A stretch of 64,000 nucleotides of DNA from Lobosporangium transversale (GCF_002105155.1 NW_019028999.1:496001-560000); one strand, 5' to 3'. Numbered from the stretch's first letter, positions 26,499-42,176 are shown. Numbers and translations are program-made. Notes: generated by a model from the sequence alone, not told the origin.

Positions 26499-29314
26499 CA
26501 ATTGACAGTACATTTGGATCCGTTGTTTTTAGCTTATGTGTCACATCCTTCGATACCAAAGATTCTTCCCTCAACCGTCAAGACTGTATTAAACCCGTTT
26601 GTTGGATCAGAGGTCAACTTGCATGCGGTTTTTACCTATACACCGTTATCGATTGCTTGTCGTTTGGGACATGTTGAGGTAGCTAAATTGCTTATCCACA
26701 ATGGTGCTAACCTGGATGCTCAGGACGAGGATGGGGAGTCATGCTTGATCATTGCTGCAAAGAATGGTCATGTTGAATGCGTGAAGCTACTAATTACTGG
26801 GAACGGGTATGCGAAAGGCGCTAATCTTGAGCTCAGGGAACGTTATTACGGATGGACAGCTCTTCACCTCGCAGGTTCGTAATGCATTTTCAAACAGGAA
26901 AGCAGAAAATGCTTTCTTTTTTTTTTTTTTTTTTTCGTGCCTATTGTTATAAGGAAACTAGCTTTGATACTGAAGTTTGATAATTGAAACTTGTAGCAAT
27001 CGAGAATCATCCTGAGGTTATTAAGGTTTTGCTTGCAGCTGGAGCCAATCCCAATGTTTACGATTTTTCATCATGGAGCCCACATGAGTATGCTGTCTTT
27101 GCTGCCAATAATGCTTGTGCTGCTCTTCTTCGTCCTGTGACTCTCAGTCTGGACGAGCGTCTACGCCTGCAAAAGCAGAACGCCGGAAGTGACGCAGCGC
27201 ATGCAAGCCCCATCTCGGTTTCGCAGCCCATGCTCTCTAGTCCTTCTGCAGGGACCTCTGGATCAAGCTCACCAAACTCACAGAAACTCGAAAAAGGCGA
27301 GTCACCGCCAACGTCAGCTGGAAAGAGCAGCAGCAAATCATTGAAGACAGCTCAGCGCGTATACGGACATAAGTATCTAGAAGATGAATCACTAATTGTT
27401 GTTACGCTGGGCTCTAATGACGCTCGCAGTACCGTGGAGCCTGTTGAGCTCTATATAAGCGGTGACAGTCATTCGTTTTTGACAGCCAGTACAGCATTTT
27501 CATTGGAAATTACGGCGGAGAATGCTACAGCAGGCGAGAAAGCCATCATTGACTTGCCTCTTAAGGATTCAAGTTATCACGATCAGATCGTTTTTTATGC
27601 ACCAAAGCCTGAAGACACTATCCTTAACTTTTCAGTTTACCCCACCTTTGGACCTTCAAGCAACAAGCTGGTCGGACGCGGCACAGCAATTCTCTCCAGC
27701 TTGGATAATCTTCGCAAAGACGTCAGGAACCAGCATCCAGAGATGACTTCCCTCCAAGGGATGAATATGACAGTACCTATCTTTGGTGTGGAAAAGATGA
27801 ATATTATTGGACGTGTTAGAGTTGAATTTACAGTTGTGCGTCCTTTCAAACATGAGAACCTCAAAGTCGGAAGCAAGCACACATATTGGAAGAGCTTGAC
27901 TACAACAGTAAGTGATACTCGAATGTATTACAGAATATAAAGCTTTTTATTTTTTTTTATTTTTTTATTTTTTATTTTTTATGTATATTGTTGACATCTA
28001 ATCCGACAAAAATACCCAATCCCGAATAGGTCATTGGTCATCGCGGCCTTGGAATGAACCGTAAGGTATCAAATCTTCAGCTCGGCGAGAATACCCTGCT
28101 TTCTTTTGTTACAGCCGCTTCTCTTGGGGCAGAATATGTGGAGTTTGGTATGTCCCCGCTCGTCGTGGTATTGTATGTGTGTCATTCGCCAGTCGATGAG
28201 GGCTATGGAATTGCTGACCTGAAAAGGTTTATTCCTTGTAATAGATGTTCAGATGACGAAGGATATGGTGCCTGTTTTATACCATGACTGGACAGTAACC
28301 GAGACTGGATTGGATATTCCTGTTAGCTCCATAACGGTAGAACAGTTCCAGAATCTCTCCAAATCAAAATCACGTAGTCATGGTAACAGTTCTCAGCCAG
28401 TCTCACCCAGACCTGGTGCCCCGAAACAAGCTACTCCTGCTTCACCATCTTCAGTTAGTCTAACTGTAGTGAAACCTGAGCTTGTGAGGAGGTCCACTCA
28501 TGATTCTGAATCAGACCCCCATAAGGAAAACCAACCGCGACTTGTTCGATCTAACAGTTTGGGCGCAATGGCCAAGATGAGGGCTCAGACAGCAGTATCT
28601 GAGCCTGCTAAGCCCGGAGCCAAGATGAAGGGCAATGGTCTGGGAACAATTCAGGCGCCATTCGCTACATTGAAAGATACGTTTGAGGTAGGATATCTAT
28701 TAACATTGACGATGACAAATGCAGGATTTATTCATAATTTGATATGTACAGTTCGAGCTCATGACTTTACACATTTTCATGTTTAGACTGTTCCAACGAA
28801 TATTGGATTCAATATCGAAGTCAAGTATCCCATGCTGGACGAAGCAGAGGATGCCAACATCCCTTTATATGCTTTTGAGATTAACCGATTTGTGGATCGG
28901 ATTTTAAAAGAGGTCTACGACCACGACCAAACACATCCCAACCGCAACATCATCTTTTCATCCTTTCACCCTGATATTTGTCTTTTGCTCAATATGAAAC
29001 AGCCAAATTATCCAGTGTTCTTTCTGACGGATGGAGGTACAAGCGTAGTAGCCGATCGTAGATGCAATTCTATTCAAGGAGCTGTCCGTTTCGCAACATC
29101 AATTGACCTGTTGGGAATTGTTACCAACAGTGCACCAATCATTGAAGCACCCAACCTGGTCAAGGCTATTAAAGAAACAGGTTTGCTGGTGTTCACTTAT
29201 GGAATAGATAACAATGATGTGGAGAACGCTAAACTTCAACGACGACATGGAGTTGATGCTGTAATTGTCGACTGCGTCTTGGCCGTGCGAAAGGGCCTTC
29301 AGCAAACAGAATAG
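23939..29314 (+). CDS. GDE1: SPX-ankyrin-glycerophosphodiester phosphodiesterase (multi-exon)
   Basis: MKFGK start, LDREVEKVNNFF (SPX), ankyrin repeats GRRPLHYAA / GWTALHLA, GDPD motifs IGHRGLG, LGENTLLSF, EYVEFDVQ, FNIEVKYP, IIFSSFHPD, GVDAVIVD. Confidence 0.95.
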
Positions 29315-29380
29315 TCATTTTAGAGTGAGTTGCTAGAAGGCAAGTCGTGTAGCTACCTAAATTGGCAAATCACTTTATAT

Positions 29381-29416
<36 letters not shown>

Positions 29417-30499
29417 CGGCAGCTGTCTTAATAATGAACGTTAGATTTAGAGTATAACAATAAAGCAGTAAAACTAGAGATGGGAAGAATTTTGTCTGAA
29501 TTTGCCTCTTCCTTTATTAGTACTAGAAAGAGAAGCGCCAGGCCTATGAAGGAGGAAAGCAAGTTCTTAACGAAATAGGCTACATTTGTCTGAAGAAGGG
29601 CTGATCTTTACCTCATTACAAGAGAGGTGTATCTGTCCTAATTCAGAAGTAACAAACTGGTGCCGTGTTTCATCCAGGTGTATTCCTCGTCAATGACCTT
29701 TTAGATTAAAATTGTATAATAGTATTATGTTACATACATCCAAGTAAGAAAAGACAAGCTTATGACGACACGCAGTTAAGCCCTGGTCTTGATGGCATTA
29801 ATGGAATGAATGACTCATGAATAAGCGAAAGTAGGTAATTTCTAACTCGTTATATTTATTATTCATTTTTGTGCACACAACCATTGCAGTGATGCATTAG
29901 TTTCCCTAAATTCTTAAGCAAGACTTTGTATTTGGTACAGCTTGCCATACAATTATCGTAATGTTGCAAGATAAAGAGGTATCCTAAACTTACATAATCT
30001 ATTAAATAGGCTCACGCTTGAAAGCTTGAAGCCTATGAATCTTTCTACAACCATGCCTATCATTAAAGAGCTCACAAGAGAAGGGAGAACGACCACTTAA
30101 CCATGTGGTGATAGATGAATGATAGTAGTGATCTTTTCCTGTACAGCTCGGCAAGACTTGATTTGTCACATCATTTACTTGCTCGTCTTCTTGCGTTCCC
30201 TTGATGTATCTGGGTTGGTAAACACTGCTAGTAGAGTTTGTTGGGCCTGTTGAAACCAGAGGGAGCCACAGCAACATATCATACCCAAGGTGATACAAAT
30301 ATCTCTGTTGGAGTGAGTGGTGAACTGTGTGTGGTTCAGATGTAGTGGACATAAACGGCGAAAGAATGCATCGAAAGGATGTGAGCGGTTATGAGAGCAA
30401 GGAAGAAGGGGTTGCTATGCCTGTTCAAGTCTTTGGCAAGAGAGTATGAATAGCAGTTGTGATCACGAGTTGATTTCGGTGAGTCCGCATAACAATGGT

Positions 30500-32462
30500 A
30501 TAGTTTCTAGACCCTATCTTCCACGTACAGCATGGCATTATTGTTGTTTTCAGACCTGGCACCAATCATGCGAGGTATTTCTCTTTCTGAGGGTTCCTTG
30601 TGTTAAACAGCCAGACAGAAAGCTTAGAAGAGATACAGACACAACGGTGAAAAAAATGTATGTGAGCAAACAGTTGCTGTGTTTATTTGTTGTCTGCACA
30701 TGCCTTCTTTCATCGCGGGCTTTTTTTTTATTGTTTCGCAAATCTTGTTTCCTTTTTTGTTCGTCAATCACTGTGTGCAGCTGAAGCATCTCTTTAGTTT
30801 CTGTACATGTATAAACACATTTTACATCGTGGCGTCTTTTTTTGTTCAAAACACAAGCGTTTTCCATTGGTGCTTCCAAACAAACTTTATTTTGGCGGCC
30901 ACTCCACAATCCAGGACAAGGATCAGCTGGCAACAGGCCTTAACTCTGTCTTCGATGTCTGTCTGTGTGCATATGAAGCGGACCCATGTATAGGGTGCCA
31001 TAATGAGGAGAATGATAGGATCGTGATGTCCCAAGACTCTGATTTTTTTGCGTACGAATGAGTCTGCTTCCTAGTGGGACCCCTTCCGCGCCGTAGACGG
31101 AAGTTTGGGGTTTACGATGTAGACAACGTTATCCAAGCACTAAGACTGCCATCACACGCGCATCTGGTGTTATTCTGTGCCATCGCAGGCAATGACTACT
31201 CAAGGAACCTCGAGACGTTAGGCCCGGTTAATAATCTTCGATTAATTCGAAACGTTGCGTGGAACGAGAACTACAATAAAATGCTTCGGGACTACCTAAG
31301 GGAAGCTAGTAAGGTGTTGGGAAGGAACGCAGCCTCTGAAGAAGGCCGTTTCAGAGTAGCTCTCCGCATTTTTACTTCCGACCATCAAACGTCGGCCCAA
31401 GCGCTACCATTGAACAATGAGTTCGATAACTTCAAGCAGCGTCTACTCAATGGAAAGGATCTTCGTCATAGAATGACTCAGCAAAGGCGAGCGCAGCGTC
31501 GCAGAACGTAAGGAAGCTCAAGCTATAGTTTTGACCTTGAAACCAAACGTCCCCAATACTAATCGTTAGTCCTTTTCTTGGATAATGTAGAGACACACCA
31601 TCATTCTATATAGTGAAAGGGTCACATAGGAACCAGTTCCGGCCCATCTTTTCTGACAAGGCGAGCATATTGAATGGGCGCACAGTTGATATCAGTAACT
31701 GCCATCAGCACGATAGGCCGGGCCTTAAGCATCCACCACGTCGGAAAAAGGCAAAAAAGAAGCAACAGAAAAAACAAAAGCGGAAGCACAAAGGCAAGAA
31801 GCCCCACAGGGCTAAAAAAGAAGGTGCACCAATTAGGGACTTGAAGGATGCTACGAAGGTTGATCACAGCTACAGCAGTAAGCACCTTATCAAGGCCTTA
31901 ACAATTGGGTCCCTTAAGGCCTCCATGGCAAGGAAAGGCGGACTGGACGCAGATGAAAGGGATAGTATTGCAAGCCAGATCCGAGGGGCTGTTGTTGCCC
32001 TCAACCGACTACGCCGCTATGCACACTGAGCGATTGCCTTGGACATTGAGAGGATCATGCGGTTACCAGGGGCAGCAAGGTCGAGGAAAAGGCACTGGAC
32101 GAGGTCTTTGATAGCAATGATTATTCCTTCCGTCTCGCCACCCTTCTTTTAAGTGGTCAAGGTGGCCCCAATTCAGCTTACGCGAGGGCAAAAAAACAAG
32201 GAAAGGCGGTAGAAACGCCCCATTATCTCCTCGCTTATGAACATTTCAAGGCCACCACTGAACTTTCCCCAATAAAGGAAATAGACATCACATTGGGGGA
32301 CGCGCAAGGCTTTGATCCCAAAAAGATCTCATTTCCAAGAGCGTCAGAGCTACTAATGGGCCAAGTACAGACATCATTAAGGCAGCACTACAGGAACGCA
32401 ATGGTGTAGCTTGTGTAAGGTATTTTCATGCATATTCTGCAATCAGATGCTCTTTATTCAGA

Positions 32463-32494
<32 letters not shown>

Positions 32495-33982
32495 CTAGTT
32501 TGATGTCGAGAAGACAAACGAAGATATGAGCGACATTGAGTTTTTTTTTGCGGGAGAACAAAAAAGTGAAAAAATACTCAGACTTTCCTACGCTCTCCTG
32601 GTCACCCGGGTATGTGTATCTGTCTGAACACGCCCTAGTTGACATCCTCTGGGCGAACGAAGATATCAAGCAGCTACTGGAGCGTATTCTGCCTCTCGAC
32701 AATCCTTCCAAGACTGCAATGTTTGAGTGTGTACAGGGAACAAAAGGGTTTTGATTCAGGCTCTCTTTTGTGACATTGGAGGCGATCGCATGGTTCTTGG
32801 ATATCAAGACAAAGTATCCCTGCAGTCACAGGACAAAGATCTAACTCGGTTCAAACTCAAAGGAACGATTTCTACCAACGGTCTAGTTCTGAATCTACTT
32901 GCCTATGACACAACCCAGACGAAGAGACAGCAGCAGTCTGACATAGATGAAGAAGACCCCAGCCAAGAACTGGAGCTTTCTCATGGATTTTTCAACACGA
33001 CGTGTTCAAAGGCAGCCGGTGAAGACCTGACAGATGAAGACTACGCAAACATAAACTGGAAGAGGAGCTCCAAACTGCTTGAAAACGTTGAGCTCACATT
33101 CAACAAACCAGGGCGGTGCCCATCCGCAAACACCACAACTATCGTCGGATGCGATCCTGGTATTGTTAATGCCCTTATGTTCTCCTCCCTGGATCCTCAC
33201 AACCCTAACTTGCGGCAAACGGTAAAGGTGAGAAGCAGGTTCTTGTACTTCCCCGCCCTCCGCTTCAATCACCTGTTGAACAAAAGGAAGCGTGAAAAAG
33301 GAATGATTGAGGTTGAGAACGTCATCCCTGTGTTTGGAAGGGATACGTACAATGAGTACTTTCAATGGATGAACGAGGAGTCTTAGACACAGATAGGATC
33401 AAAGAATTTGGATGTGCTTCAAGAATTCTACGAGTCCAGATGGCACCTGAAAAAAAAATGGGACCTACGAAAGGCTCAACGAGCTACGTTCGACTACGCG
33501 GTACAGCGAGTGTTGAAGATGCTCGGGGAAAAAAGGAGTGCTTGTCGTCGGCCTAGGGTCCTTTGAAAGTAGTAAAGGAGTTCCCAGCAAGCACACTGCT
33601 ATAACGAGACACCTTGTAACACAGGTATGGCTTTTTTTAAAAAAGTAAGAAAAGCTGGAAAGCCAAAGAACCCTTGCTAATAAACGACTGCCATTTGAAA
33701 CGCTTAGGTCAAAGCACGAGGACACTTCGCTGTAGGAGCGCACGAATTTTACACCAGCGCCCGCTGTCCCCGACCCCGACCCCTCTGCGATAGCTTTTTA
33801 GAGACGGTGTACCTCGCTCTAAATATTGCCGGGCATGTAAGGTATTCTTCGACCGTGACGCAGTAGGGGCGGAAAACATCGCAAGAATCGGCCTTGCTCA
33901 AATTGAGAGGCAAGAGAGGCTTGCAAAGTACAAGCCCACGGAAGAGTCGCCTGCTCCGGCTGTAAAGCGCGCACGACGCTAG
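30500..33982 (+). pseudogene. Decayed spliced gene fusing an XPG/FEN1-like PIN nuclease domain to a Fanzor1 (TnpB-derived) RuvC nuclease
   Basis: PIN/XPG-I motifs YEADPCI, MSQDSDFF and AGNDYSRN. Fanzor motifs LKGTISTNG, IVGCDPG (D at 33153), HEFYTSARCP..C (E at 33744), YCRAC and FDRDAVGAENI (D at 33857). Introns at 31508-31590, about 32403-32498 and 33625-33707. Internal stops and frameshifts are present. The 5' boundary is approximate. Confidence 0.85.
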
Positions 33983-34178
33983 ACACAAGTATTTGGGTGC
34001 CGGCACACCCACAAAAAATTTGTAAGTTCTGTTTATTTTCGTCTCCTGTATCCTCTCTAATCTTTTGCCCCTGAATTTCTGGACTAACTTTAAAAACCGT
34101 ACAGATCAACAGATACCGGAACAACAATCTAGTCGATCATAATGGCATGTACCTTGACGGTGCTCAGTGCCTTGGGGG
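33980..34178 (+). ncRNA. Candidate Fanzor omegaRNA scaffold / element right end (copy 1)
   Basis: Directly downstream of the Fanzor stop. Shares TAGACACAAGTATT..GGCACA with copy 2. Hairpins GGGTG/CACCC and GGCA-GTACC/GGTGC-TGCC. Confidence 0.45.
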
Positions 34179-34567
34179 AACTTGAAAAATAAAATTACTT
34201 TTTTGACAGTTCTGTTGCCATGGTGCACTTTGTCCAATAATAAATGAAAATGGAGCCCATTATTTTATTTGCCACTGGAATGTTGTATGGAACAGTGGCG
34301 ATGCACTCAATGCTTGGGACGATGTGCCGCAGCCGAAGCATTGAGGGTCTAGCCTCGATTTTAATATTCCATCAATGGTTAGATTTATCAGGACGACAGA
34401 TCTTAATTGTAATTCTCAAGGAGGGCTCTTGCCAATGTTGTGAATATAAAAGAGTACTTTCCCTAACTTGGGTAAAAAAGAAAAGTTTGAAAGTGAACTT
34501 CATCCTTTTCAAGAAGAACTCCAGCCCAAGAAGTCCAATATTTTGAAATCACTGAAGATTTGAAAGA

Positions 34568-37500
34568 ATGTCAAGTAATGACAGTAATAGAAATGACCCC
34601 CGGTTCAATCAGAATCGCTCATTCCAACAGAATTCATCATTTCGCCCGCCCATCCCAGGTCATCCTTTATCAGGTCAAGTTCACGGTACCTTTCAAGTAT
34701 CTTCTGGAGGACATCCTATATCACCTAGCAGATTTCCAGGTCAGCAACCACCAGTATACCAGCCGCATCAATTTGTAAACCCCGGTAACCGGCCTATACA
34801 AGGCGCGCCTCCTGCGGTGCACCAGCCCCACCAATTCCATAATATACACCATCAGCATCACCAACAGTTTCATCAACGACCAGCGGCTCCTCCATTTCAT
34901 AACGTAATTCATGGTCGGGATGTCTTTCCAGTCCGAACATCCAGCGGTAGTAGCAGCCCTGTCTCTCTCATGAGTCCAACACAGACACAACCTCCTACCC
35001 GCAAGTTGCCCCCCGTCCCTACGGATCTTGATACTGCTCACACTACTGCCAGCAATACTAGAAGGGATGCCAGCAGCAACAGTAGCGATAGTGATTCTGA
35101 CTACGATCCATCCAAGCCTGTAAGCATTGACGAGGTCAAACAGCATATTGACAAATTACAGAGCGAAATAGAGGGCACCTCACATCAAAGGCCCTACAAC
35201 AAGGGCCTTGACATGACTGTTGTGGCTGCAGCTGTAGCAACCGTGGGGTCTACGGCATTTAGCCAAGGTGTTGCAGCTGCCAGTAAGGTGTTAGACAGCA
35301 AGGCGAACGAACTTGTTGTCAACATTGAAAAGAATCCAGCCTTGAGCCATCTGATTCAATTGGCAGACAAACTTGTGGATGTTGGCAAGGTGGTTCCTTT
35401 TATTGCACCAGCTTTTGTCATCTTAAAGGTAAAGCTGGTTACCCATTGAAATATTAATGGACTATACAAAGCCTTTTCTTTCATCTTCGCTCGCTGACAG
35501 TTTCATAAAAACCGTTTGAAAACTTTGTTTAGATCATCATTGATGTCGAGCAAAAGGCCAGGGATGTTGATGCAAAGTGTACAGATCTTCTGGAGCGGAT
35601 CAATTTCATGGTTAGCAATCTCACTGTACTGGAAAAGATCCCGATTAATGACTCCATCAAAGTTGTAATTGACAAGACGAACAATACGTTGAAGCAGGCT
35701 GCGTCGCTCATTCAGACATATCGCAAGCAAGGTACCATTGCAAGGCGCTTGAACATGAGCAATAGTCAGAACTTCATTCAGATGGCAGTCGATATTACAA
35801 CTTGTACACAAGATCTGATGCTGAGTCTGCAGATCCAGCAGACAGGGGATCTTTCTGTTCTCACTAGAGCGGTTCCTTCTGATACTAAGGATGATGAAGC
35901 AAGACTGTTTGTTCAACAGCACGGTGGTCATTCTGTTGTCATTGTAAGCTTTTCTTCTTTTTGAACACTACCTTATTCACATTATACCTTTGTTTTTATG
36001 AAACAGAGAATGGGGATGAGGATAGCTATGGACTTTAACGCATGTTGCCACTTAATGTAAACCGTTTTGTAGAATAGCCCAGAGCTAGTAGAAGAGTTTG
36101 CAAAAAAGATGCACTTGACCATGAGTGATCAGGTTATGGAGCAAATGCAGTCCAACATGGAGGATCTCATGGATGAAAATCAGACCAAAATCGAAGCGCT
36201 TCTCAAAGAGAATTCATCCAATGTTGTTGCAGAGACCATTAAAGTCTTGGCCACTCAGATACGTGGAAACGACGCAGAACAGCGGTTGACATGCGTTCAG
36301 TGCGACAAGGAGTATCAAGAATCAGCAAACGGCCCTGCGGCGTGCTCATTTCACAAGAGCATGGAGCAGGGTGGTTCATACTCTTGCTGTGGCAAGAAGT
36401 CGCCTTGTACTTATTCCTCCCATCGCTCAGCTCACCATTGCGAGTACCCTTACACAGCTTTCTACGATTTTGCCTTTGCAATCTCGGGCTACACCGACAC
36501 GAAGGAAGAGTGGGCAGAGATAGAAGAGGAAGATATGTTGACTGGTACGGTTCAGAAGGCGTGTGTGAGTAAGCTGCTGCGTTGGCGCAGTCACCACGAA
36601 CGGATCAAGAAACCAATGATGATCATTCATGTTGGTCGTGTCAGCTATGATAATCCTTACTACTTCCAGGCCTTCGGAGTCGATGACATCAAGGCGACCA
36701 ATGCGTCTATCCGTAAGACGGGCACATCCCTGATTTTTAGAACGACCCTAGATAATGATGCGTATGCAATGGCTGAATGGGTTATAGATCCGTCCGGAAT
36801 GATCAATGGAATTAAGATTTCCTGCAAAGTTGCTACCAGCGAGTCTGCAACCACTAAGCTAGTCCCTCTGGACATCGAGACAGTCTCTCCATCGGGTGAG
36901 ATTCAGACCCTGTCCAAAGTGACCTTCAAGGTCTACAGGCCTGCGGAGCCTTACAAACTGCCAGAGATCCGCTATGTTGGCCACACTTTACCCATGACTC
37001 CTCTTCGAGAGGTTCGTCAGTTCAAAGTCAGGACAAAATTGCCGATCGTTATGATCCCTGAAGGCAAGATGAAGGCAAACGGGGATGGAGGGTTTGTTCG
37101 CAGAGACGCAGACAAGTTCAAAAGTATGATTCGTATCTTTAACAAGACTCCGCCCAGTAGCCAAACATATGTCACGTTGGCCTCTTGCAAAGCCGAATAT
37201 CGTATTATAGGCGAAAAAGAATATAAGGAGGTCAATGGGTTGGATCTGGGCGGTATTAAATTTCCAGTCTCCATTGGGCCTATGCAATCAGCTGATATTT
37301 CATTTGAGGCTATTGTACTCCGCACACAAGAGCAAGCGGCTTTGATGCTAAGTTGCTGGGACTGGGCCTTGGTTGCGCTCCATAGTCCCATTCGTATCCG
37401 CTTGACGTTTACGGACATCGAGGGTGAAGAATGCTCGTTCATCCAAGAGTATATTCATCAGCCTTCGCTTCATATGGCAGTCAAAAATGAAGAAAAGGAC

Positions 37501-38178
37501 CTGCTTTTTCTGTATATCGACAATATGCTTGAAGGAACCCGCAGCGCCATCCGTGTTTCTAAACCCAATGACTCGGACACCGTTGTCGATGTCAATGGGA
37601 CTAAATACACAATCGCAGAGTTGAACAGAATTGTGTACAAGGCTGAAAAGGATGGCATCACAGAGGTGCTTCTGGATTGCGGACGGAGTTCTGAAGAATA
37701 CAAATGGGATGCTTGGGCACTAGTTGATTTGAGCTGTCGACGAGTGTATGCGTTCAAGATTCTTCTATCTGAAGGATACTCTAGGTCTAAGAAGGTGGCC
37801 GCTGCACTCGGGTATGCATTATGTCCACTTTATGGTGAAGAAGATGGAGTTGCAATTGAAGAAAGGCCTATTAGATATGCGGATGAGAAATCCACCTTTC
37901 CAGATCTTGAATCCCAAGAAGTCCCTGCAATTATGGTAGATGATGATGTCGATGATGATGTCGATGGTAAAAAGGAGCCTGCCATTGCTATTGCAACCGC
38001 AGCTTCTTCATCTGTCGCTGCTGCAATCTCGGAAGTGGTTAAGGTGACAAGTTCATTGGATACTGCAACCTTTTTGAGTAGTATGGCAAGTCTGGAAAAG
38101 CGAATTGAGTCGTTGGATACGAATGTTGCCCGCATGGCTACTGCATTGGAGAAACTAGTGGACATTTTGGGATCTTAA
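34568..38178 (+). CDS. Uncharacterised 3-exon protein: P/H/Q-rich N-terminus, putative four-helix-bundle (MLKL-N-like) domain, CHORD-like Zn motif
   Basis: Three ORFs joined by GT-AG introns (about 35429-35532 and 35944-36072). Motifs VPFIAPAFVILK..KCTDLLERI and CxxC..N..ACSFH..YSCC..C..H. Confidence 0.8.
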
Positions 38179-38337: not shown

Positions 38338-40115
38338 TTATTGTAAATTTTTGGAAGGGAATACCAGAGCCATTGTAATCATACCCGCACCAATGGCTAA
38401 AAGCGCTATCACCTTTAAACTTAGTTGCTTATTTCGACTTAGATGGAATACATGTCTTCTTTCCAGAGGCGGATTACCTTGTTCGAGGTAGTATGATGAC
38501 GAGGATGATGCGAACGTGTGTAACTGGATGGAGCTGATACCCAAGTGACGATTGATTTTCGACGATTGATTTTGGCTTGAATCGTCTAGAAGCATCAGTA
38601 CTCCCAGCCAAATGTTTTGAAGTGGCTCAGAAAGCATTAACAGCTTATCTTGTTGTCGCTCATGCTTCTGTATCAGATATTGAATAGCAAGTGAATCCAG
38701 AGGTTCCTGCATAAGCAGGCTATTCAGGTGTCGACTCTTGAGGATCCTGGTCCTTCCTTCTTGCTCGAAATGAATAGGATCCTGTATGTATAAGCGGACC
38801 GAATGATAAAATAAGAAGAGAGAAAGCGTACTAGATATTGCTGGAGGTCTATAGCTATTGAGTTTTGTGTTACCTGGTAAACATCCAGCACAAATTGCGT
38901 CATCTCTTGAAACATGTTCTGCACACTCCAGAATGCAACAATAGAATCCTTGAGCTTCGTTGCCATTTCAACCCGCACCTTAGTCGTTTTGGTCGTTCTA
39001 GGTGTAGGTAGGGTCTTGTAGATTTTCGGCCACGTGTCCAGTACTAGATCCGCAAATGACTGAGCGACCCACAACTGCTCTTCGTCTAAATCAATCGCCT
39101 TTTTTTTTCCCTTCATCTGTTCCTGTACCTCTTCTGGAGACAAGGGCGTTCCAGCAGTTGTTAGCCTTGTTGTCTTTGAGCCTAGCGTGGGCGACGGCTG
39201 GTAAAGCGTCAATGCCTCAATGATCTGATCACTGAGCTGCTCCAGCCGTTCCGTGCGCTTTGCCAGTTCCTGAAAGACAACTCTGAAATGCTCAAGATCA
39301 AGGCCGGCAACTGAAGATGGGGGGCCAGCTGCCTGCAAAGCCGGCGAGCCGAGGTTATGGTGCTCCCATAGTTGGCGTTGGCTACATCGCGATGTTTCCG
39401 AAGGAATGTTTTGTCGATAAACTGATGGCAACGCCAATTTTGAAGGAGTTGAAGGGACTGAGGCGTCAGAGGAAACCACCGATCCTGCCGTCAGAGCCGT
39501 GAGTGTGAAAGGAGTAATTTTTTCTTCTTGTGATGCCTCAACCAAAAGCCGGCTTGGTTGCGATGGTCTTAAACCCATCGCCGAGGGAGCGGAGACGATG
39601 ATGGATCCTTTATTAGGTACAAGCACTGCAGATTGAGACCTGACAGTTACAGTTATCGGCTCTATTTGGGCTTTTATTCCTTGCTTACAATGGGTATCAT
39701 GTTTTTGTGGCATGGTCTCTATCTCGAACTCCAAGTTGTCCATGCTAGCTGATGCCTGAATTTGTGATGGGTTTAACTTCCCGTTGTTGCCGTGAGCTTG
39801 CGGCTTTGAAGATTTTTTGTCTCCGGCGCCATCGTCAACGACTGCAATGAGGATCTTTCCTAATGATTGCGGTTGTTGCCCTCTTGCTGTCTCCTGTATG
39901 CCCTGTTCGTCTGCTAACATGTGTTTTGTTGCTATTTGGGCTGCAGCCATTTCCGCTTTCCGAGCTTCTGTCACCGCTAATCCTGCTCTCTGTGTAAGGT
40001 CCTTTTCATCAACATCGGGAATATCTATACTATCGGGTTCATTTCGCAACTCCTGTTTTTCTGCAGGTGTGAGGCGACTGGTAGTTCTAATTGTAAGTGA
40101 TCTGTATGTATCCAT
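38338..40115 (-). CDS. Hypothetical protein with a C-terminal hydrophobic segment (probably 2 exons)
   Basis: 463-aa ORF plus 124-aa ORF, probably linked by an intron near 38780-38873. No family recognised. Confidence 0.55.
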
Positions 40116-42176
40116 TTTTTTTTAATGATTTGCACTGGAGACGAAATGAAAGATTATGACCAAGAAGTGAGAGAGGAATAGAGAAAGGATGGCTTTGAGG
40201 TTTGATAAGAGAATATATTAGTTGAAGTAGTTATCTACTAAAATCTTTGGAATAACTAGGAAAGGTTAGCAAAAAATTCTGATTCTACTTGAGGAAAAGA
40301 TGCTCGTCAATCCAAGTGCATACAGCATGAAATGATGTCCATCTTGTTCTTTATTTTTTTTTATTTTATTTTATTTTTTTTTTAAAAAAAAGCCATTGTC
40401 TTGAATTGCTTAAGCAACAGAAATATAGATATTGATAGGCCAGTTTGTAGGCGTTTAATGAAGCCTCAAATACCGATCTCAATTAATACTTACGATGAAA
40501 GCAGGCTGTTAGAGTGTGGTCCACATTCATCTACTTTTGTTTATATGAACCAAGCTGCATGAATTGCAACCACCATTCAAGCCTTTTAAACACCACAAAG
40601 CGTCAATGACATGGAGCGTCTCTCAATATTTAAAGGATCGCTGTTCTGCGCTTACAAAACATGTAGACATGTAGGGTTGGCGTGAACATTCTCCGTTTAC
40701 TAATAAGCACTTTAATCTAGTGCGTGATAGGCTAATTAACCAAGATAATTCTTCGTCGTCTACTTAGGAAGCAGCGCTTCAAATCGGTTCAGATCAAGGC
40801 TACCTGGTCGCCGTTCTATTTCCTCCTTGCTCTTTCTGGTTTTGAGATTCGAATGTATCGCGATTTTTAGGACATATTTCTATTACACACGTTCTCCATC
40901 TCTTTAATCTTCGAACGAAGAAAGGCGAAGAGGATCTAACCAGCCTCGGAATCTAGCTCAAGAGGAAGCGCCTTTTTCTTTGAGTAGTGTTGCTACGCGA
41001 AGTAGCTACTTATTAGCTCAAGGTCATTAGGATCAAGCTTCAATATGTTTTTGATTAGTCGATTAGTTGCGAGGCTCAAAATACAAAGCAGACGATAAAA
41101 GTTTTCGCTTTTTTGATTTATCAACTTTCTACGTATTCTCATTCAAAGTGAAACACATATTGGAATGATGTCCATTTTCCTGTTTTCAGCTGCATTTGCT
41201 ATTGTTGTTTCTAAGGCGCATTAAAAATATCGCTTTCAACCCATGCTAACACAACTGCAATCTGTTGAATGTACTCAAAGCGACTGCAGATCACTTTGCT
41301 GATTGTTACCGTCTAATCCAATATTGACAAGACAAGAGGGATCCTTTATCTGTTAATTAATATCCTATCGATAAGAGTAGGCTGCTCTCCAAGGACTGCG
41401 TCGAAAAGATGATCCATGCTGACTTTTACCTATACCAGTTCCTGTTACAACTGAAGTTGCTTTTATTAAAAAAAAAAAGTGGTCCTGTCTTCGAGGACAA
41501 ATGCCCGATGTGAAAGTGGTCTCTAAGATCGCCACCGAAGAGCCCATACCAACATTAAAAGGAGCTCGCGTCCTTGGCCTGGTCTTTACACTAGATGTCT
41601 CAAACTTGGCGATTGCAGGAAATATCGATTTCAACTTTGTGTGCAAGATTGGGTGCAAAGATTCCAAGGATATCAAGACGAACTTTCCGCGAGAGCCAGC
41701 TTGACAAGAAGGAAGTGCTAAATGGCTGCGAAAGCAAAGCATACAACACTGTGGAGCAAGATGTTGAGGTTGTTGGACAAGCTTAAGACTAAAGTCAATG
41801 ACAGACTGTCAGCCAAAGCAAAGCAGTTCAAAGATATGCTTTCATTCTAAATATCTAGTAATGACGCGCCCCCAATCTCTAAAGACAGATAGGAACTTAA
41901 CCTAAGGAAAAGCGCGTCAGAGCCATCCATTAAGAGTGATTGTCATTTTTCAGTGCACATTCTTTCACATTGGCTATTTTTTTTTTTTTTTTTTTTCATC
42001 ACAAAGGCGACATTACTTCACGTCCACGACAACCCTTACCCTATCGCTCATCCACTTCATTCTATCCAAACTCACATTTCATACACTCTCTCCCTGATTC
42101 AGTCGCATTTGTATTCTTGTCTCTTGTCTCGTCTTAAATCAGCCCCTCCTCACGCGACTGTGTAGGATCACTCACC

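Follow-up and report, generated by a model that had tools for sequence, protein, structure and literature searches.

We describe here a fusion of two nucleases, encountered in a 64,000-nucleotide stretch of the Lobosporangium transversale genome (GCF_002105155.1 NW_019028999.1:496001-560000; hereafter the window, with positions counted from its first letter). Positions 30129-34115 of the window hold a degenerate copy of a fungal repeat with dispersed copies, and in intact relatives of its gene a PIN domain of the FEN superfamily stands ahead of a Fanzor1 RNA-guided nuclease. The PIN-Fanzor fusion is real, and both folds were recovered in the predicted structure of a single protein. To our knowledge, the RNA-guided nucleases of the TnpB, Cas12 and Fanzor line are known as single-nuclease proteins. 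A second 5' nuclease kept on Fanzor1 across at least eight fungal genera would be a natural version of the Cas9-exonuclease fusions engineered to increase homology-directed repair, and the fusion offers a direct way to learn what Fanzors do for their transposons, with intact genes already on record.

The original prediction, made from the window's sequence, had proposed one spliced gene in which an XPG/FEN1-like PIN nuclease is joined to a Fanzor. Intact relatives bear this out: they are single gene models with the PIN part in front, and neither of the outcomes that had been feared (PIN and RuvC parts always encoded by separate genes, or a half that fails to match its family) occurred. A search of all 50%-identity representatives with the RuvC half returned 125 hits, 15 of which were at least 600 amino acids long; a PIN profile derived from the proteins P0006 and P0007 matched 11 of these 15, in two cases at the profile tail only. 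Among the hits traced to their source, ten belonged to the genera Mortierella, Benniella, Linnemannia, Podila, and Lobosporangium and one, the secreted protein P0099, to a bacterium; we treat the latter as a chance hit. The intact copies that the original prediction had suggested seeking in Mortierellaceae were found as the single models P0006, P0007, and P0140. The relatives pass the Pfam family PF07282, and the first match in Atlas was a Mucoromycota cluster of 58 members and 1312 amino acids (0.91). Linnemannia gamsii carries five long PIN-Fanzor models (P0056, P0134-P0138) that are almost identical and lie on five contigs, which suggests recent copying in that species; they are candidates for a recently active family and offer the most suitable material for defining ends and target sites. 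Pattern scans, an insensitive method, found no relative among 31 candidate stretches in viral contigs or 19 candidates in prokaryotic genomes. By eye, no PIN-type N-terminus was seen in the first 400 residues of any row inspected, these being 15 of the 30 Rhizopus and all four Umbelopsis rows in the Saito table and all four Microbotryum rows in the Yoon table.

P0006, P0007, and P0140 are the three among 25 aligned sequences that retain all seven acidic residues of the PIN domain, the RuvC D/E/D, and the four cysteines, the remainder being partial or mis-spliced models. The acidic set of P0007 (D34, D85, E171, D173, D191, D193, and D243) was matched to the FEN1 motifs by HMMER. In the other long members that cover these seven positions, which are 33-74% identical to P0007, the residue is kept in 7/7, 7/7, 8/8, 8/8, 9/9, 8/9, and 9/9 cases, and full conservation was found at 2 of the 37 other Asp/Glu positions. 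Because they are near-invariant by comparison, the acidic positions show the pattern of a working active site, and the PIN head is catalytically complete-looking as judged from its residues. The window copy keeps the last five of the seven and has lost the first two. Arch residues K92 and R99 are conserved in 8/8; we take the arch Lys to be the equivalent of FEN1 K93, and R100 as the counterpart of the arch Arg was read from structure entry titles.

The Fanzor half is equally recognizable by its residues. P0007 bears D883, TS before C1063, cysteines at 1063, 1068, 1083, and 1086, and RD at 1092-1093, which together constitute the Fanzor1 C-terminal motif, used here as D-x(125-275)-[TS][TS]-xx-C4 zinc finger-x(5-50)-RD. 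The rearranged RuvC-II Glu is E1056 in P0007, with the first zinc-finger Cys at 1063, and falls at 33744-33746 in the window. The window copy has the same motif residues spread across its breaks.

The structural comparison that the original prediction had called for was made on an AlphaFold model of P0007, a relative and not the window copy (32 sequences, pLDDT 75.5, pTM 0.58), and both halves matched their families. Foldseek found SpuFz1 at E 9e-12 and FEN1 at 4e-9, and GtFz1, EXO1, and PpFz1 were also matched. By VIA, residues 1-314 aligned with EXO1 at Z 20.4 (281 residues, 3.2 A), with FEN1 at 19.0, and with XPG at 15-18, while residues 445-1118 aligned with PpFz1 at Z 17.5 (472 residues, 4.0 A) and with SpuFz1 at 16.9. 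The head, which had been described as XPG/FEN1-like, is of the FEN superfamily and closer to EXO1 and FEN1 than to XPG. XRN1 and XRN2 share the head fold at Z 15.2-15.7. With a profile of 10 members, the first 270 positions matched archaeal FEN1 at E 6e-7, and the end gave a weak match to SpuFz1 (E 0.14). Atlas look-alikes of the head were giant-virus clusters of XPG_N/XPG_I and Pox_G5 (0.95). The subfamily signals differ, in that the profile points to archaeal FEN1, the structure to EXO1 by 1.4 Z, and Atlas to giant-virus clusters, and the lineage of the head (FEN1, EXO1, or viral) cannot be assigned from these data. Both halves have viral look-alikes, namely giant-virus Fanzors and giant-virus XPG-like nucleases, from which no viral origin is implied. 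Two further segments occur in all members and are unmodelled: a basic linker after the PIN domain, and a lengthy acidic segment of low complexity, inserted between the GTISTNG strand and RuvC-I (784-854 in P0007, about 32920-33050 in the window).

In the window, the repeat copy lies between a GDE1-like SPX-ankyrin-GDPD gene that ends at 29314 and an uncharacterised gene that begins near 34556. We assigned the following features.

30129-34115, plus strand: copy of the dispersed repeat, mobile-element-like and probably 5'-truncated (contig depth steps, edges of unique contigs).
30129-30911, plus strand: upstream part of the repeat (high depth, loose ends at 30129, no match to Pfam or to the fetched proteins).
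30910-30911, plus strand: deletion junction at which the start codon and PIN N-region were lost (loose ends; P0007 aligns only from residue 149).
30912-31507, plus strand: exon of the FEN1/EXO1-like PIN domain, with its I-region and H2TH part, stop at 31059 (32% to P0007 149-345; E, D, D, D, D kept).
31508-31590, plus strand: intron 1, GT..AG, whose removal connects the PIN exon in frame with the one that follows (X7 joint 31507>31596, five variant letters between; absent in X3).
31591-32403, plus strand: exon with the basic linker, a stretch resembling a nuclear localization signal, and the start of the Fanzor, stop at 32027, frameshift near 32086 (41% to P0007 351-505, 28% to 521-638).
32404-32498, plus strand: putative intron 2, GT..AG, with poly-T (sequence and frame; missing from the joint list because joint listing skips poly-T).
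32499-33624, plus strand: exon with Fanzor WED/REC, GTISTNG, and the RuvC-I Asp at 33153-33155; frameshifts near 32541, 32745, and 33531, stop at 33384.
33625-33707, plus strand: intron 3, GT..AG (X7 joint 33622>33706, cut +2; absent in X3).
33708-33982, plus strand: exon with the RuvC-II Glu, zinc finger, and RuvC-III Asp; frameshift near 33811, stop at 33980-33982 (42% and 56% to P0007 1045-1121).
33982-34021, plus strand: predicted 5' part of the omegaRNA scaffold, with a 6-bp hairpin at 33994-34011 (27/40 identity to locus L002, by eye; single-sequence folds).
34022-34104, plus strand: intron-like stretch in the predicted omegaRNA, with GTAAGT, branch point ACTAAC, and CAG (one X7 contig, splice signals).
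34105-34115, plus strand: right end of the element, predicted to form a 4-bp hairpin with base 34021 once spliced (copies diverge after 34115; fold).
34116-34130, plus strand: predicted guide of the window copy, in unique flank (from the Fanzor1 layout in the available text of PMC10711439).

Intact P0007 aligned to the window by tblastn in six collinear blocks (residues 149-1121 over 30915-33943, E 7e-19 to 2e-61), and the rest of the 64 kb gave only E 3.5 or worse. Coding similarity runs over 30912-33982 on the plus strand, collinear with intact Mortierellaceae proteins of 1121-1502 amino acids, and not from the start at 30500 that had been predicted. The individual motifs were as predicted: EAD at 30975-30983, DSD at 31035-31043, GNDY at 31188-31199, a Lys/Arg-rich stretch at about 31739-31805, GTISTNG at 32862-32882, RuvC-I DPG at 33153-33161, the RuvC-II E, the zinc-finger cysteines, and RuvC-III DRD at 33851-33859, all on the plus strand. 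The single reading path that had been seen is collinear and is not an open frame. We counted three in-frame stops (31059, 32027, and 33384) and five frameshifts (near 32086, 32541, 32745, 33531, and 33811), and a deletion at 30910/30911, flanked on either side by loose contig ends in X3, X4, and X7, has removed the ATG together with the N-region of the PIN domain (about 148 codons, including two of the seven acidic residues). The window copy is a dead relic and cannot work. The closest named proteins are the L. transversale models P0005 and P0012 (81-96% identity over segments), paralogs that have an MGL.. N-terminus. Because sister copies in the same organism show other letters at the lesions, these are largely private to the window copy. 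Pfam searches with the window pieces alone gave XPG_I at E 0.038 and Cas12f1-like_TNB at E 0.063, both short of the cut-off, and phmmer of single pieces against the PDB returned only Rad2 (E 0.02, ranked behind a chance aldolase match) on the PIN side and no match for the RuvC half; the assignment to the PIN and Fanzor families was made on the intact relatives. No further copy, and no relative by tblastx, was found within the 64 kb window.

The evidence for one transcript comes from splice joints. Contigs of run X7, probably RNA, skip 31508-31590 and 33625-33707 at GT..AG borders, and neither interval is among the 15 joints listed for the DNA run X3. Reading through the first joint stays in frame and passes from the PIN exon to the one that leads into the Fanzor part, in agreement with the intron that had been predicted there; this intron is skipped by one X7 contig and by none of X3. 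Introns are still present in the DNA copies, an observation that would count against retrotransposition.

Contigs of three DNA runs (1271, 326, and 282 over 29000-35000) delimit the repeat. Inside 30129-34115 depth climbs steeply: in X3 and X4 it goes from about 9 to several hundred, in X1 from about 140 to several thousand. Unique contigs stop at 30158 and resume at 34088. Collapsed single contigs have a depth of 140-180, against 9-10 in the unique flanks, which on a naive reading corresponds to roughly 15-20 close copies, depth being no copy number. Copies disagree 3' of 34115 (agreement 0.52 among 4 contigs in X3 and 0.56 among 3 in X7), and most right ends read ..GATA, one being without the TA. 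There are loose ends at 30129, before which the copies partly agree (0.72, 4-5 contigs), and the edge itself lies in a stretch like the 3' end of an intron, with pyrimidines and a CAG at 30144-30146. Because the copies partly agree before 30129, and their consensus adds a branch-point-like motif for this acceptor, the window copy appears to have been cut short at its left.

Apart from poly-A/poly-T, we found no inverted repeats at the window copy, nor any informative direct repeats. A TGATCT shared by both edges was dropped as a terminal repeat, as other copies continue leftwards. The 5 kb that separate the host genes yielded no transposase, a result that holds only for the 5'-truncated window copy. 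The original prediction had supposed that the element may spread without a transposase, by homing or repair. As stated this is not supported: the window copy looks 5'-truncated and so does not show the left part of the full element, and simple homing would not yield the unrelated 3' flanks of different copies. The upstream 780 bases or so seemed F-box-like by eye and matched no Pfam family in three readings; within 30129-30911 one Cys-rich reading is interrupted by no stops other than TGA, and this part may be what is left of another gene of the element. Most differences between copies are transitions (C>T, G>A, T>C, and A>G), as methylation-driven decay would give. Long spliced genes without a Pfam match adjoin the element (34556-38178 and 38724-40121), and the other neighbours in the window are ordinary: a kinase, DOP1, a Vps5-like protein, an arrestin, DAHP synthase, and isocitrate/isopropylmalate dehydrogenase.

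The right end of the element likely specifies an omegaRNA, by analogy with known Fanzors. The 40 bases from 33982 are identical at 27/40 positions, gapless and by eye, to the same place in the distant metagenome locus L002, where part of the block is still protein-coding, and in single-sequence folds both show a hairpin of 6-7 bp and then an A-rich linker. One X7 contig joins 34021 directly to 34105-34115 and continues into foreign flank, an 83-base intron-like stretch having been removed. The spliced scaffold is 53 nt long and folds into hairpins of 6 and 4 bp (z -1.9, with 14 of 300 shuffles as stable), the second of which forms because 34022-34104 is removed. The fold of L002 has z -2.9; this locus is without the intron and its block ends in GATA too, and L003 has a candidate intron at the same place. 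For comparison, the omegaRNA of PpFz1 has a first stem of 7 bp and a second of 4 bp (Table S3 of PMC11423790). No Rfam match was obtained. We regard splicing of the scaffold as a lead; an intron in a guide scaffold, if true, would put guide maturation under spliceosome control. From Fanzor1 biochemistry we infer that the first 15 or so flanking bases would serve as guide, and for the window copy (34116-34130) these have no other match above chance in the window. In L001 (569-1232), the block after the stop agrees with L003 over no more than a few initial bases; unrelated sequence follows, perhaps another insertion.

Either half may be active as a nuclease and, as the original prediction had proposed, the PIN head could act at the R-loop or the cut ends. 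The account that we find somewhat more probable than not is that the window holds a decayed copy of an element whose intact copies use the RNA of their right end to cut the element-free site, trim the 5' ends, and let repair copy the element back. The omegaRNA from the right end would load onto the fusion protein, the Fanzor1 part would perform guided cleavage of the empty site, and the tethered FEN/EXO1-like head would, going by FEN/EXO1 chemistry, remove 5' strands or flaps at the break. Such trimming would favour homologous copying from the intact allele over end joining, and movement to new loci would probably need a transposase, which the window copy does not show. In the available texts, restorative homing is demonstrated for TnpB and only proposed for Fanzor (PMC13565253), the FEN1-like G5 of a poxvirus, vaccinia, is required for break repair (PMC9415595), and Cas9 fused to Exo1 or Mre11 raises recombination in yeast (PMC9450370).

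A number of points weigh against this account. Since the P0007 model has a pTM of 0.58 and an unmodelled linker at 345-430, it is silent on whether the PIN head reaches the cut, and folds of the FEN superfamily act on RNA too (XRN2, Z 15.7). X7 was taken to be RNA by guess and from its GT..AG joints, no listed run being recorded as RNA, which says nothing about expression; its spliced contigs carry variant letters, marking them as sister copies and not the window copy, and none spans the whole gene. A left end, a target duplication, and an empty site were sought at the window copy and not found. As to the omegaRNA, the L003 fold is no better than chance (z -0.3), the unspliced 3' region of the window folds no better than shuffles (z +0.75), the consensus fold of three sequences is weak (-1.07 kcal/mol, with an unfavourable covariation term), and the spliced scaffold comes from one contig only.

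That the fusion is an artefact of gene prediction, joining two neighbouring genes, is hardly credible and largely refuted: many database models are indeed fragmentary or mis-spliced, but an in-frame joint is present in X7, and the same order and linker motif recur in gene models that several projects produced for 8 genera. If the fusion stands, its head may instead serve transposition of the carrier by flap removal or gap and donor repair, with the Fanzor targeting it or being merely co-expressed. Copies that are dispersed, end precisely on the right, and have flanks unrelated to one another are as expected of transposase-made insertions, and ends that mostly read ..GATA, one without the TA, fit a TA-type target; the absence of a transposase from the 5 kb between the host genes speaks against it, truncated though the copy is, and a covalent fusion kept across 7-8 genera better suits a shared substrate. 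We consider this role unlikely. A head that acts on RNA, trimming the mRNA 5'-to-3' down to the omegaRNA or stripping guide RNA from the R-loop, seems rather unlikely. It would explain how an omegaRNA at the 3' end of an mRNA is excised, as it must be, and the fold is shared with XRN1/2; EXO1 and FEN1 also act on RNA:DNA hybrids. The DNA enzymes nevertheless outrank XRN by VIA, the head keeps two traits of DNA-threading FEN enzymes, the arch Lys/Arg and the H2TH motif, and ordinary Fanzor1 lacking a PIN domain gives omegaRNA in yeast (available text of PMC10432273).

We think it very unlikely that the protein is itself the mobiliser, which would be the strong form of the original prediction's idea; the element would reach new loci without a transposase through guided cutting, end resection, and copying from one end only, the 3' end. 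The precise 3' end, the apparent 5' truncation, and the introns retained in DNA copies would suit such a route, as would the constant 3' ends, fuzzy 5' ends, and lack of inverted repeats described for Mucor MCi-2 Fanzor elements in the available text of PMC3627910; it predicts, however, that donor and new copy share their first 15 flanking bases, and flank agreement is only 0.52-0.56. The homing account, drawn out to its full extent, would make of the whole family a cut-and-resect homing enzyme, in which a guided break is committed to homologous copying by an EXO1-like head, with a spliceosome-assembled scaffold and no transposase. We regard this as doubtful.

A full-text search of the literature found no description of a Fanzor-XPG/FEN1 fusion or of a Fanzor in Mortierella, and the main texts of Saito 2023, Yoon 2023, Jiang 2023, Bao and Jurka 2013, Altae-Tran 2023, and a 2026 OMEGA review, in the parts available, mention no PIN or flap-nuclease fusion. 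This covers text; figures (including Jiang Fig. S1B, on extra Fanzor domains) and Repbase may name the fusion. The term XPG is absent from the searched supplements of Saito, Yoon, and Jiang, one picture-only Saito file aside. The sequences themselves were already public. In the part of Saito 2023 Supplementary Table 1 available, at least 20 FZ1 rows (1148-1944 amino acids, 7 Mortierellaceae genera) have PIN motifs in their first 400 residues by eye, 19 of the 20 being labelled hypothetical and one misnamed, with the fusion unremarked; the available part of Yoon Table S2 holds four more PIN-Fanzor sequences. The claim that no such family had been described therefore holds for the text and not for the sequences, and the fusion is widespread in one fungal family and apparently undescribed in text though its sequences are published.

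Compared with known systems, the element is closest to Fanzor1 (SpuFz1, PpFz1, and GtFz1), with the same fold over about 470 residues (Z 15-17.5), the D..E-x6-C4 zinc finger..RD layout, and a short structured RNA, predicted here, at the right end before a variable flank. Supplementary Table 1 of Saito 2023 gives the label FZ1 to the paralog ORZ22893.1 (P0016), which is 84% identical to the window copy, and this places the element on the Fz1 branch. Unlike Fanzor1, the fusion has an extra 315-residue nuclease domain and basic linker in front and an intron inside its predicted omegaRNA, and it is 1100-1900 amino acids long, against the 600-700 given for most Fz1 in the available text of PMC11423790. 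Its head resembles EXO1 and FEN1 in fold (Z 20.4 and 19.0), in the seven acidic residues, in the arch Lys/Arg, and in an H2TH with DY, but differs in being only 12-21% identical, under the Pfam cut-offs, and in being joined to an RNA-guided nuclease on a multi-copy element. The unclassified Fanzor1 elements MCi-2 and MCi-5 of Mucor are likewise fungal, with a constant 3' end, a variable 5' end, and no clear inverted repeats; in the text available on them they have target duplications of 6-12 bp, of a kind not found here, and no PIN domain is mentioned. Engineered Cas9-exonuclease fusions, as presented in the available text, also pair a guided cutter with an end-resecting nuclease, and these artificial proteins offer an analogy of mechanism rather than a relative.

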